Origin: Candidatus Campbellbacteria bacterium RIFOXYC2_FULL_35_25
Lineage (GTDB): Bacteria; Patescibacteriota; Minisyncoccia; Phycocordibacterales; UBA12079
Assembly: GCA_001774495.1 (NCBI GenBank)
Contig: MFAE01000002.1
Span: 1 to 40,371, forward strand
Direction of reading: 5' to 3'
DNA: 40,371 nucleotides
The number at the start of each line of letters is the position of its first letter. The first letter of the stretch is position 1. The translations under genes were made by a program, and so were the position numbers. A model generated the notes under the pieces. That model had not been told where the DNA came from. It saw only the letters and a program-made list of their open reading frames with translations, and did not search any database. Positions 5,663 through 16,563 of this stretch are shown in pieces.

Positions 5663-5698
5663 AAAACGAACAACTCAACAGGTTGAGTTGTTCGTTTT
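5663..5698 (+). terminator. Terminator-like hairpin after secY
   Basis: AAAACGAACAACTCAAC-AG-GTTGAGTTGTTCGTTTT. Confidence 0.7.
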
Positions 5699-6360: not shown

Positions 6361-7125
6361 ATGATTTATTCTGAAGCAGAAATAAATATCTTACGTGAAG
6401 GGGGTAAAAGACTCGCTTATGTTTTAGGTGAAGTTGCAAAAAAAACTGTTCCAGGAGTAAAAATTTTTGAATTAAATGATTATGCCGAGAAACTTATTCT
6501 GGAAGGAGGTGATACGCCTGCTTTTTTGAATTATAAACCAGAGGGGTCTGGCTTTCCTTATCCTGCAAGTCTGTGCGTTTCGGTTAATGAGGGGATTGTT
6601 CACGGTATTTCAAATGGCAACAGTAGGGTTTTAAAGGATGGTGACGTCGTTGGTCTTGATCTTGGTCTTAGACACAATGGTTTTGTTACAGACATGGCGG
6701 TAACTGTTGGAGTAGGCAAGGTAGATAATGAGTCTAGGAAGCTCATAGAAGCCACAAAACAGGCTCTCTATGAAGGAATTGGACAAGCTAGGGCGGGAAA
6801 CACAACTGGCGATATAGGCCACGCCGTAGCTGAATTTGGAAAAAAAGCCAGGTTTAATGTAGCTGAAGATTTGGGAGGTCACGGTGTTGGAAAAAATGTC
6901 CACGAAGAACCTTTCATCCCCAATTTTGGCAGAAAAGGAAGTGGAGATAAATTAAGGTCAGGTATGGTTTTGGCGATTGAACCGATGTTGAATGCGGGTA
7001 CAAAAAGAATTGTTTTAGATGATGATGGATACACTTTCAATACTGCCGATGGAAAAAAGAGTGCTCACTTTGAACACACTATTTTGATAACTAATGGGGA
7101 ACCAGAGATTTTAACAAAGATTTAA
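6361..7125 (+). CDS. map: Type I methionine aminopeptidase
   Basis: CVSVNEGIVHG, GHGVG..VHEEP, AIEPM, SAHFEHT. Confidence 0.97.
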   Translation: MIYSEAEINILREGGKRLAYVLGEVAKKTVPGVKIFELNDYAEKLILEGGDTPAFLNYKPEGSGFPYPASLCVSVNEGIVHGISNGNSRVLKDGDVVGLDLGLRHNGFVTDMAVTVGVGKVDNESRKLIEATKQALYEGIGQARAGNTTGDIGHAVAEFGKKARFNVAEDLGGHGVGKNVHEEPFIPNFGRKGSGDKLRSGMVLAIEPMLNAGTKRIVLDDDGYTFNTADGKKSAHFEHTILITNGEPEILTKI

Positions 7126-7239
7126 CCAAGACCAAGACCAAGACCAAGACCAAGACCAAGACCAAGACCAAGACCAAGACCAAGGCCAAGGCCAAGACCA
7201 AGACCAAGGCCAAGGCCAAGGCCAAGGTTAGGGTTAGGG
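7126..7239. repeat. Hexamer tandem repeat CCAAG(A/G) x17 followed by TTAGGG x2
   Basis: Read directly: 11 CCAAGA and 6 CCAAGG units at 7126-7227, then two TTAGGG. Confidence 0.95.
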
Positions 7240-7284
7240 TTTTTATTGAATAATAATTTTAAATAATTTATAATTTAATTTTAA

Positions 7285-7326
7285 TCTTTCTGATAAAAAT
7301 AGCGGTCGCTATTTTTATCAGAAAGA
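7285..7326. repeat. Palindrome upstream of the PaaX/Cas2-like gene
   Basis: 20-bp perfect arms TCTTTCTGATAAAAATAGCG-GT-CGCTATTTTTATCAGAAAGA. Confidence 0.9.
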
Positions 7327-7359
7327 ATATCAAAGTATGGGTAAAAGAATTATATAAAA

Positions 7360-7938
7360 ATGGAAAAAATAAAGAAAAAAAGAAAGTTACGGGTTCCTGT
7401 TAAAAAAATTATTTTGGCTACCATTGCAATAGCTGGTCTCGTATCTGTAGCTGTTGTTGCCCCAAATGCTTTGCAGGCCATCGGGTATTTTTCTGGAAAT
7501 AAGAAATATAAAAAATATGATCAAAAATATTATGTTAACAGCGTAGTTGGCGGGTTGTTAAAAAAAGATTTAATTAAACTCGAAATAAAAAATGGTAAAA
7601 AATACATTCGTTTAACAAAGAAAGGAGAGCAAGAGTTAGCCCGATTAGAATTAAATGATTTTAAAATAAAAAAGCCAAAAAAATGGGATAAAAAGTGGCG
7701 GATTGTAATTTTTGATATTAAAGAGACAAGGAAAGGTACTAGGACTATTTTAAGAAGCACATTGAGTAGATTAGGTTTTGTAAAATTACAAAATAGTGTT
7801 TGGGTATTTCCTTATGATTGCAAAGAATTAATTGTAATGATGAAATCCAGTTTATTTTTAGGTAAAGATGTCTTGTATATGACTGTAGAAAAGATAGAGA
7901 ATGATAAATGGCTAAAAGAAGTTTTTGGGTTGAAATAA
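7360..7938 (+). CDS. PaaX-family / Cas2-like protein (wHTH plus ferredoxin-like domain), common in CPR
   Basis: IRLTKKG wing, KWDKKWRIVIFDI, LGFVKLQNSVWVFPYDC. Confidence 0.8.
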   Translation: MEKIKKKRKLRVPVKKIILATIAIAGLVSVAVVAPNALQAIGYFSGNKKYKKYDQKYYVNSVVGGLLKKDLIKLEIKNGKKYIRLTKKGEQELARLELNDFKIKKPKKWDKKWRIVIFDIKETRKGTRTILRSTLSRLGFVKLQNSVWVFPYDCKELIVMMKSSLFLGKDVLYMTVEKIENDKWLKEVFGLK

Positions 7939-7980
7939 TTCTGATAAAAATGACGGCCGTCATTTTTATCAGAATTATTT
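7933..7980. repeat. 48-bp perfect palindrome downstream of the PaaX/Cas2-like gene
   Basis: AAATAATTCTGATAAAAATGACGG|CCGTCATTTTTATCAGAATTATTT; shares its core with 7285-7326. Confidence 0.9.
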
Positions 7981-8057
7981 TTTTGCTAAAGATCTTTTGT
8001 TTTTAACGTTTGGTTATGTTAATATATTGGCAATATTAACTTAATTTTTATAGAATT

Positions 8058-8663
8058 ATGGAACATTTTAGTAAAGAGAAAACATTAGTCATGGTTAAAC
8101 CAGACGGGATACAAAGAACTTTGGTTGGCGAAATTATTAAACGTTACGAAAGAGTCGGTCTTAAACTAGTTGGCTTAAAGATGATTGCTCCTAGTAAGGA
8201 GAAAATTGAGGAACACTATACCCTTGACCCAGAATGGAGAAGAATAACAGGAGAAAAGACAATAGAAAGTTATAAAAAAAAGGGCTTACAACCACCTTCA
8301 GAAAATCCTTTGGAGATTACTGCTATTATATTAGAAAATCTTAAAAAATATATGACAAGCGGTCCTGTTATTGCTATGGTTTGGCAAGGGGCCCACGCAG
8401 TTAAGATTTCAAGGAAGATTGTTGGTGGGACAGAGCCGTTCACTTCAGACGTTGGTACTATTCGGGGAGATTTTGTTCTAGATTCCTACCAAATGTCGGA
8501 TGCAGACGGGAGAGCTGTTCGGAATTTAATCCATGCCTCTGGTTCGGTTGAAGAAGCCGAAAAAGAAATAAAACATTGGTTTGAAGAAAGTGAAATTATA
8601 AGTTACAGGTTGGTACAAGAGCAAATGCTTTACGACGTAAACATCGACGGTATTTTTGAATAA
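8058..8663 (+). CDS. ndk: Nucleoside diphosphate kinase
   Basis: TLVMVKPDG, SGPVIAMVW, GTIRGDF, NLIHASGS. Confidence 0.96.
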   Translation: MEHFSKEKTLVMVKPDGIQRTLVGEIIKRYERVGLKLVGLKMIAPSKEKIEEHYTLDPEWRRITGEKTIESYKKKGLQPPSENPLEITAIILENLKKYMTSGPVIAMVWQGAHAVKISRKIVGGTEPFTSDVGTIRGDFVLDSYQMSDADGRAVRNLIHASGSVEEAEKEIKHWFEESEIISYRLVQEQMLYDVNIDGIFE

Positions 8664-8743
8664 TTTTTTAATACTTTAAAATATTTCTTTTTACCGGAAT
8701 CGAGCATCCTTTTGCATCGTTGCCTCTACTTGGTTAAACGACT

Positions 8744-9433
8744 ATGGCTCAAAAAAAAGTTTGGGAAAAAGAATATCAAAATCCAAAGTTAGTGACAGGC
8801 TATGATAAGCCTCAGGCTTTTTTTCTTAAATTTTTGAAATATATAAAAAAGGATTTGGGTTTGAATCTGGGAAATTTTAGAATTCTTGACTTAGGTTCTG
8901 GCACAGGAAGGAATGCTAATTACCTTGCTCAAAAGGGAGCCCAAGTAATTGGAATAGAAATTTCTGATACAGCAATAAATTTAGCTAAAAACAGAGCAAA
9001 AGAAATTGGGGCGGAGACCAAATATATCAAACAGAGTATTGGCGAAAAATACCCCTTTGATGATAAAAGTTTTGATTTAGTTGTCGATATTACTTCATCC
9101 AATTCCTTGGATGAGAATGAAAGAGAGATTTATCTTTCTGAAGTTTTTAGGGTTTTGAAAAAAGATGGAATATTTTTTGTGCGAGCTTTGTGCAAGGACG
9201 GGGATAAAAATGCAAAATTTCTTTTGAAAAATAATTCTGGGAAGGAAAAAGATACTTATATAATGCCAGAGACATGTTTGGTTGAGAGAGTTTTTTCAAA
9301 AGATGATTTTATTCAAATTTATTCAAAATATTTTAAAATATTAAAAATGGAAAAAACAGAAAGTTATTCCACGATAAATAATCGCCAATTTAAAAGAAAT
9401 TTTTGGTTAGTTACTTTGATTCCTGGGCAATAA
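8744..9433 (+). CDS. Class I SAM-dependent methyltransferase
   Basis: ILDLGSGTGRN, PFDDKSFDLV, RVLKKDG. Confidence 0.9.
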   Translation: MAQKKVWEKEYQNPKLVTGYDKPQAFFLKFLKYIKKDLGLNLGNFRILDLGSGTGRNANYLAQKGAQVIGIEISDTAINLAKNRAKEIGAETKYIKQSIGEKYPFDDKSFDLVVDITSSNSLDENEREIYLSEVFRVLKKDGIFFVRALCKDGDKNAKFLLKNNSGKEKDTYIMPETCLVERVFSKDDFIQIYSKYFKILKMEKTESYSTINNRQFKRNFWLVTLIPGQ

Positions 9434-9562
9434 GCATTGTAATATAAGGGGCAGTCCACGCTCTGGTTATTTTGGTAAACAGTATTTGTTTTGTAGATTA
9501 CAAAACAAAAATAAATTTGCTTCAAGTATTGCAAGATTCTGTGGGGGTGTATAATTGTAGTA

Positions 9563-10902: not shown

Positions 10903-10944
10903 AAATAAAAAACCGCAGGAGCTGACTCCTGCGGTTTTTTATTT
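10903..10944. terminator. Bidirectional terminator between convergent genes
   Basis: TAAAAAACCGCAGGAG-CTGA-CTCCTGCGGTTTTTTA. Confidence 0.85.
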
Positions 10945-16293: not shown

Positions 16294-16437
16294 GGATTCT
16301 TCCCCCTAGTACTTTGTTTGGATACCATTCCCATTTCCGTTCACAATAATAACCCCGATTTACTTTTCTGTCAATGACAGAAGATAATAACTAAATTAAA
16401 AACCCCTAGTATCCATTAAGAATACTAGGGGTTTTTA

Positions 16438-16563
16438 AAATAATTTCAAATTTGGATGAAGAACGAGGAGTTGAGAAAAAATTTTTAGAGCCTTATTTGT
16501 TATAAGGTGAATAGAAATTTTTTTGAAAGACGACAAAGTTATGCGCCAAATTTGGAATTATTT
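16438..16563 (-). repeat. ~125-bp hairpin element, copy after rpmB
   Basis: Reverse complement matches the architecture of 18591-18716 and 23173-23293 (CGAGGAG...GAGC-stem-GTGA...CGACAAAG). Confidence 0.85.

Follow-up and report, generated by a model that had tools for sequence, protein, structure and literature searches.

The closest described counterparts of the locus analysed here are the REP/RAYT systems, in which, according to the accessible parts of PMC2817692 and PMC5581495, a gene lies between two cognate palindromes that coevolve with it. RAYTs have a low duplication rate and are inherited mostly vertically (PMC5581495, accessible part). At the protein level the nearest described families are the PaaX repressors, built of PF07848, PF20803 and PF08223 and represented by PDB entries 8A39 and 3L09, and the Cas2/VapD nucleases, whose active site consists of a strand-1 Asp pair and a turn equivalent to the QxS motif (PMC10491678, accessible part). 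Cas2 is itself placed within the VapD interferase family in the accessible text of PMC6452270, which also states that its active site is dispensable in CRISPR adaptation and that its scaffold role does not depend on the Asp. Here we describe a family of small proteins, called mini-PaaX, that we set apart because it does not qualify as a member of the PaaX, Cas2, RAYT, IS or integron families. No description of it was found in the literature searched (most subscription journals lay outside the search), and PMC6744442 contains no occurrence of PaaX, Cas2 or palindrome.

The window, that is, the whole stretch of 40,371 nucleotides under analysis, belongs to a 782-kb CPR assembly (the source genome, G000). 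The gene and its surroundings are organized as follows:

7246..7274, + strand: possible sigma-70 promoter, a 10/12 consensus match only, just upstream of the upstream site
7288..7323, no strand: upstream cognate site, a 36-bp palindrome with centre CGGTCG, AGCGGTCGCT
7360..7938, + strand: mini-PaaX gene, 192 aa, wHTH plus Cas2-like domain, without the PaaX C-terminal domain
7393..7659, + strand: winged-helix domain, residues ~12-100 (structure model and fold comparison)
Residues 52-68 of the protein: recognition helix, covarying with site positions 14-17
7678..7896, + strand: Cas2-like (PaaX_M) domain, residues 107-179 (Pfam)
7714..7716, + strand: D119 codon, the Asp that ends strand 1 and corresponds in position to the catalytic Asp of Cas2/VapD
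7789..7797, + strand: Q144-N145-S146 codons, a Cas2-type QxS motif whose x predicts the centre class
7939..7974, no strand: downstream cognate site with centre CGGCCG, GACGGCCGTC

The ORF starts with the ATG at 7360 and ends with a TAA at 7936-7938. The initial annotation had reported two 36-bp cores bracketing this gene, and both were recovered exactly as given, at 7288-7323 and 7939-7974; allowing up to 3 mismatches, the core matched twice in the window and never in 100 shuffles. Pairing extends beyond the cores, reaching 7285-7326 around the upstream site and 7933-7980 around the downstream one, where a T run follows, and the downstream site may double as a terminator. The upstream palindrome had been placed 33 nt before the ATG, which is right for the end of the extended hairpin, and the downstream one over the stop codon, which is likewise right for the extended hairpin, the 36-bp core beginning immediately past the TAA. 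Two more copies of this site family are found in the genome (C5:20207 and C5:59987). The number of promoter matches in the region, 7 vs 4.4 +/- 2.0 in shuffles, was not significant. Other long, terminator-like hairpins stand at operon ends in the window, at 5663-5698, 10903-10944 and 16396-16438.

Upstream of the gene lies map, after which infA-rpmJ-rpsM had been expected. This order was not found: in 18 of 18 map loci of this family a methyltransferase gene and/or ndk follow map, and a variable insert is common. The slot (window 7126-8057; L112-L128) is a hot spot in this family and presumably holds mini-PaaX (2/18), a RAYT-like gene, a TlyA-like gene or RelB/RelE-like pairs, or is empty; the order of ndk and the methyltransferase gene, as we take them to be, is also swapped. 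Neighbour names such as map, ndk, leuS, aspS and dprA are assumed by us from the sequence, except for the genes named by Pfam. From the map stop codon, an array of about 17 copies of the hexamer (A/G)CCAAG, the only such array in the genome, occupies window positions 7125-7245 and grades into GGTTAG units.

Long perfect palindromes are frequent in the source genome, which holds well over 200 of them in many families. For this reason hairpins at the flanks of a gene are unremarkable there, two matched ones are remarkable, and matched pairs are the right control. Hairpins centred on CG-RY-CG number 11: 2 at the window gene, 2 at a paralog on contig C5 (56% identical to the window gene, with sites of different arms) and 7 solitary. 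A scan for other ORFs between matched palindromes, not exhaustive since its G+C filter missed the window gene itself, returned only two, both Y1_Tnp (RAYT-like) genes. These genes (C6:2462-3154 and C7:5858-6520) lie between matched TGTCGGACA-centred palindromes and represent CPR REP/RAYT systems. A separate family of 30-bp palindromes centred on CTATAG/CTGCAG, untied to mini-PaaX in this genome, occurs at C2:81076-83042, C2:108061 and C9:16548.

Bracketing by matched palindromes is a trait of the family. We collected 277 loci with 223 distinct genes. Of these genes, 199 had 250 nt or more on each side and were scored for sites with a C[GT]RY[AC]G centre and at least 11/18 pairs, a pattern derived from these same data. 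The initial annotation had made its reading depend on homologs being flanked each by its own palindrome pair, and this is what we observed: of the 199 genes, 175 had a site upstream, 163 had one downstream and 157 had both, compared with 7 of 553 control windows at other genes. Among more distant homologs, matched pairs were found at 23 of 34 in an unanchored search. The downstream site of a gene was the top match to its own upstream site in 140 of 166 cases (identity 82% vs 37%); the arms are private to each gene around a fixed C(G/T)RY(A/C)G centre, whose class is the same in both sites of a gene and which shows no strand preference. Imperfect flanking pairs were direct copies in 50 and inverted copies in 14 of 84 cases (kin among them not being independent), and they shared centre orientation in 20 of 27; among asymmetric pairs, 28 of 70 had opposed centre orientation.

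In 45 genes the centre of the upstream site lies 18 nt ahead of the ATG, and this site often covers a -10 box or the ATG; TATAAT was present on the top strand of 46 of 166 upstream sites vs 17 downstream ones. This location, often with TATAAT, together with the autoregulation of PaaX, makes autorepression through the upstream site probable. The earlier suggestion of paired operators for autoregulation thus gains support from the upstream copy.

The genes next to family members are unrelated (403 neighbours in 301 clusters, the largest of 8, the largest clusters being presumably housekeeping genes), and the paa catabolic genes show no link among them. Paralogs are at most 81-82% identical, with no near-identical ones, and close homologs are mostly vertical orthologs, which indicates slow movement. 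A head-to-head inverted duplication of a family gene, at G055:C85 (L050, L211), is probably an assembly artefact at palindromes; L050 was left out of the evidence.

The proposal that the protein has a wHTH-like and a Cas2-like half was borne out by Pfam and by the structure model. PaaX_M matched residues 107-179 with 68 bits, CRISPR_Cas2 scored 19.8 bits, below its cut-off, and TIGR02277, the PaaX equivalog, reached 35 bits against a cut-off of 264. PaaX_C had no Pfam match in the 192-aa protein, and no HUH (Y1_Tnp), tyrosine- or serine-recombinase domain was detected in domain profile searches. The absence of cas1, also noted earlier, extends to the whole source genome (0 Cas1 matches), and no CRISPR array was found within window positions 6500-9000. 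The system appears to be neither CRISPR nor PaaX. The predicted structure (pLDDT 81) had PaaX 8A39 as its best match (E 4.9e-5), followed by wHTH proteins and Cas2, and residues 12-100 superpose on the wHTHs of MarR, PadR, TubR and AspA (Z ~11, rmsd ~2 over 73-84 residues). A sequence search of the C-terminal half against the PDB returned only 3KFW, at E 1.6, and the homodimer prediction scored 0.24, under the mark of 0.42.

Among 166 homologs, D119, E122, R128, S146 and C154 are present in 100% and Q144 in 99%. These D/E/R/QxS/C residues are absent from PaaX; that of E. coli (8A39) has Ser at the D119 position and APS in place of QxS. As Cas2 does not need its Asp for the scaffold role, the conservation of D119 could be structural. 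The family is large, with 3,594 clusters at 50% identity (E <= 1e-10). Its gene occurs in 66 of 201 genomes of the order, in 0-10 copies, and in 70 of 251 genomes across the phylum, so that two thirds of the genomes searched are without it; no relative was found among 9 candidate viral contigs. Databases often label these proteins 'CRISPR-associated endonuclease Cas2'.

Two other roles could be read from the protein and its distribution. One is a VapD-like nuclease toxin silenced by its own sites and released upon DNA loss or attack, in addiction or abortive defence. The invariant Asp and QxS, the patchy, multi-copy presence of the gene and the TA pairs that fill the same map-ndk slot in relatives would suit it, as would the membership of Cas2 in the VapD interferase family (PMC6452270, accessible part). 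Such a toxin seems improbable to us, since there is no antitoxin or conserved neighbour, the dispersed sites described below would go unexplained, and residue 145, which belongs to the putative active-site motif, covaries with the centre of the site, which makes the site itself the likely substrate. The other is a chromosome-organising or membrane-tethering protein, similar to AspA, TubR or MatP, acting on dispersed sites. The wHTH resembles those of AspA and TubR, and the N-terminal stretch is hydrophobic, with a 19-residue mean of at least 1.8 in 80% of the 166 homologs. A membrane anchor was dismissed because this stretch forms helix 1, strand 1 and helix 2 of the wHTH in the model, and an organiser that two thirds of the searched genomes lack, with erratic site numbers and a specificity that differs by paralog, is quite improbable.

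The way in which the site is read can be approached from its half-sites. Their identity is U-shaped and about equal across sites and within one hairpin (78-82%), which points to readout of the sequence. Among the four half-sites of a gene, high identity at the centre gives way to a dip at positions 5-9, followed by 81-96% at positions 11-18 and a drop at 19-20. In imperfect pairs, two-by-two differences were of the direct-repeat type in 113 cases vs 42 that preserve pairing and 39 of the inverted type. In near-perfect pairs, to which the window pair belongs, all 44 preserve pairing. Many sites pair poorly yet match each other. The compensatory AG..CT to GA..TC change pointed out in the initial annotation is real, but it is no proof of hairpin function because the family conserves half-site sequence and not pairing; it would represent a local perfecting of the hairpin.

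Residues of the protein covary with bases of the site. Residue 145 goes with the centre: Asn is found with CGGTCG/CGACCG in 54 of 59 cases and Asp with CTATAG in 50 of 58, and in held-out homologs Gln corresponds mostly to CGGCCG and Asp mostly to CTATAG. K/R125 covaries with position 4 (median p 0.002 over independent pairs), D129 with position 5 (p 0.008) and, in the recognition helix, R61 with position 14 (p 0.04) and residue 57 with positions 16-17. Residue 145 changed in the same direction in 4.6 of 5 independent pairs and residue 57 offered one such pair, in both cases too few for significance. The independent-pair test used a tree built without the covarying columns, and three mismatched controls gave p 0.4-1. 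The upstream site of the window gene obeys this code; for position 4, K125 predicts G, but the downstream site and both solitary copies carry A, and the centre of the downstream site is CGGCCG. The correspondence is collinear, the Cas2-like domain going with the centre and the recognition helix with the outer boxes; given this spatial order, the protein is likely to read its site in duplex form. We consider it very probable that the protein binds its cognate site specifically.

This bears on the alternative that the palindromes are RNA terminators or generic hairpins unrelated to the protein. Hairpins number hundreds in the genome, a T run follows the downstream copy, and the 44 of 44 pairing-preserving differences of near-perfect pairs are what such hairpins would show. 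Yet the excess of bracketed homologs over control windows, the private arms with their residue-base code, the poorly pairing sites that still match each other and a centre without strand preference make this alternative highly improbable.

Cognate sites are also dispersed away from the genes. Counts were made with a loose pattern that catches about half of the true sites and includes the flanking ones; they reached 5 or more in 26 of 66 gene-bearing genomes vs 3 of 135 others, and in 10 genomes they surpassed twice the gene number by 5 or more. A counter-example is G108, with 29 sites and no family gene found at E 0.01; the gene has apparently been lost, was left unassembled or is too diverged. 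The 29 matches comprise at least 4 site families with mixed half-sites. A palindrome scattered genome-wide independently of the gene had been named as evidence against the original reading: it is scattered, but it follows the gene family. Solitary sites are 7 in the source genome, 17 in the complete genome G005 and 51 in the 742 kb of G006 that were covered, and 3, 6 and 33 of them, respectively, belong to the family of a resident gene. Their variation is greatest at positions 5-8. Some of them are grouped in mixed arrays: in the source genome, three solitary sites of three families lie within 250 bp (C5:19962-20207, L456) upstream of a dprA-like gene, and similar mixed arrays occur in G006 C26, C37 and C41, one of them duplicated as a block, so that it is present at two loci. 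Accessory ORFs with a shared 3' hairpin, a possible cargo, are repeatedly seen beside or between sites (G006 C37:11340-11930 and C41:54583-55290; G005 near 263564).

Solitary sites are not placed like operators, as 14 of the 52 intervals that hold them (27%) are between convergent genes, compared with 28% for other hairpins and 13% for site-free intervals. They were not enriched beside accessory genes (23/52 vs 191/442 and 548/1130 intervals, with crude ORF calls). No convincing in-frame copy was found inside conserved genes in three genomes and 56 further loci, and no consistent target-site duplication at 129 solitary sites; one 11-bp direct repeat was seen in the comparison of close relatives described next.

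Genes and sites turn over among close relatives. G005 and G006, with flanks 80-95% alike, share none of 12 gene loci (2 + 10) and differ in many site-bearing blocks of 45-144 bp with ragged ends. At all seven loci that were aligned between them, the gene unit is missing and no residual site is left; the C8/C39 cases of this comparison are partial losses. At the map locus, the gene is present in 2 of 18 genomes of the family, with different arms, and the other 16 have no site. Empty alleles with a single palindrome, a further check proposed with the original reading, were thus not found for the gene itself at 16 of 18 map loci and 7 of 7 aligned loci, and the lack of a palindrome in empty gene alleles shows that the unit is no simple att-cassette. 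What is gained and lost is a unit of the gene with both matched palindromes, along with solitary copies. A solitary site at aspS in the source genome was considered as an empty allele of the aspS-linked genes of relatives and rejected because it lies at the opposite end of aspS. Joints at site centres were not found in contigs of runs X1, X2, X4 and X10 (window 7230-9500) nor, for the paralog region, in those of X1, X10, X11 and X15; contigs lose rare variants and break at palindromes, so the missing excised form is weak evidence. A related strain in run X10 lacks a 258-aa ORF upstream of the paralog region (L455:4315-5297, G000 C5), with a joint about 190 bp from the nearest site.

One locus displays a filled and an empty state with a crossover at the centre. 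Positions 646131 and 647054 of G005 are hybrid sites in which the outer halves belong to one family (A) and the inner halves to another (B), the latter being that of a resident G005 gene; the outer halves of the two hybrids match each other and so do the inner ones. Between them lies a 923-bp cargo with a non-family ORF, and both centres have the same direction. The orthologous place in G006 (C18, flanks 88% alike) has one A|A palindrome and no cargo. The arrangement is then A|A in G006 vs A|B-cargo-B|A in G005, with the breakpoint within 8 bp around the centre. Slippage loss could yield the empty allele but not the hybrid arrangement, and the pattern is the one expected when a circle that bears B integrates at an A site (attB x attP). 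Three genomes yielded one such clean pair; in another fusion, of two sites near their centres, the joint lies 3 nt off. The predominance of direct over inverted copies among imperfect flanking pairs is in keeping with integration by crossover at the centre. The view of the palindromes as recombination or mobility ends is therefore favoured by this pair and by the gain and loss of genes and sites, although not in the form of a simple att-cassette.

The main rival is a pure repressor with host-driven turnover of its sites, i.e. a truncated PaaX without catalysis whose sites are operators that loop as a pair, the solitary ones being a regulon or copies moved by host recombination or hairpin instability. 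It agrees with PaaX as the best fold match, with the position and TATAAT content of the upstream sites, and with the variation of solitary sites at positions 5-8, as though they were still bound. PaaX also binds a site of 39 bp, TGATTC-N27-GAATCA, and is a repressor of its own promoter (accessible part of PMC9493321). However, it is not evident what purpose a regulator would serve that has no cargo, no ligand domain and no conserved target, and the second site at the 3' end of the gene, the solitary sites between convergent genes, the turnover among close relatives, the invariance of Cas2 active-site positions that PaaX has lost and the A|B-cargo-B|A insertion do not fit it. We regard this rival as unlikely.

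What is firm in these results is that the gene is bracketed, that the arms are private, that residues and bases covary, that cognate sites are dispersed and turn over, and that one pair shows a crossover at the centre. The explanation to which we lean, by a little more than even, is a mobile, self-repressing module of the REP/RAYT kind whose protein cuts or recombines at the centre of the site; we would likewise give somewhat better than an even chance to catalysis, or a licensing of recombination, at that centre. Weighing against it are a protein with no detected HUH, tyrosine- or serine-recombinase domain, the single clean centre crossover, empty gene alleles that have no site, the ragged ends of site-bearing blocks, the absence of near-identical paralogs, the opposed centres of 28 of 70 asymmetric pairs, the missing excised form and the many sites of G108. 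A protein dimer would bind each 36-38-bp site, with the two winged helices reading the outer 8-bp boxes (positions 11-18) and the Cas2-like dimer, with its paired D119/QxS residues, sitting on the centre. Binding at the upstream site would repress the gene's own promoter. Rare catalytic events at the centre, or a recruited host enzyme, would integrate or excise site-bounded DNA and could seed new sites, and paralogs would diverge in specificity so that each retains a site family to itself, in the manner of RAYTs and their REPs. It is possible, if somewhat short of an even chance, that the family represents thousands of Cas2-fold, winged-helix-guided site-specific recombinases or nucleases that, throughout the phylum, move palindrome-bounded DNA in CPR bacteria under a readable amino-acid-to-base code, this DNA being their own gene, cargo genes and bare sites.

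The labels 'Cas2' and 'PaaX' carried by thousands of CPR proteins both appear to be wrong. Should the Cas2-like domain indeed act on the centre, the protein would be a site-specific DNA enzyme of 190 residues that is specific for 36 bp and comes with a natural library of variants, and genome engineering would be an obvious field of use. DNA rearrangement would also gain a new class of enzyme, and a living Cas2 homolog would be seen at work on a mobile element without Cas1. Cas2 would then gain a role in mobile DNA, which bears on its origin and on the purpose of its nuclease site as discussed in the accessible part of PMC6452270. If binding alone holds, a major CPR repeat family would be explained and a protein-DNA code would be at hand; if catalysis fails, the system would rank as a novel kind of autoregulated repressor.

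Compared with insertion sequences, the mini-PaaX family lacks near-identical copies and a consistent target-site duplication. With the site-specific recombination cassettes (integron attC, Xer/dif modules and attP x attB) it shares one cargo-gene locus with the pattern of attB plus attP giving attL and attR, and a site of two half-sites around a short, often asymmetric core. It differs from them in the lack of a tyrosine or serine recombinase domain in its protein, in its site-free empty gene alleles and in site gains that are mostly ragged blocks. The ferredoxin-like fold, the strand-1 Asp and the QxS-type turn are shared with Cas2/VapD proteins, including the stand-alone BPSL1038; here the domain is fused to a wHTH, has a sequence-specific cognate site and occurs in a genome without Cas1. 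As PaaX is described in the accessible literature, it resembles our family in the wHTH plus Cas2-like domain, in a long two-box palindromic site of similar length and in autoregulation. Unlike PaaX, mini-PaaX has neither the C-terminal domain nor paa genes nearby, it has its own sites on both sides of the gene, and its Cas2-like domain apparently also reads bases. REP/RAYT systems differ more deeply in their protein, an HUH/Y1 transposase unrelated to the wHTH plus Cas2-like protein. Their repeats differ too, as the mini-PaaX repeat has a fixed centre and variable arms, is apparently read as duplex, lacks the GTAG-type foot that is a feature of REPs, numbers tens of sites instead of hundreds of copies and tends to flank its gene in direct rather than inverted copies. 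Yet, as far as the accessible parts of the RAYT papers go, both have a gene between two cognate, coevolving palindromes, cognate repeats that are abundant where the gene is present (G108 excepted), repeat mosaics, slow movement and mostly vertical inheritance.
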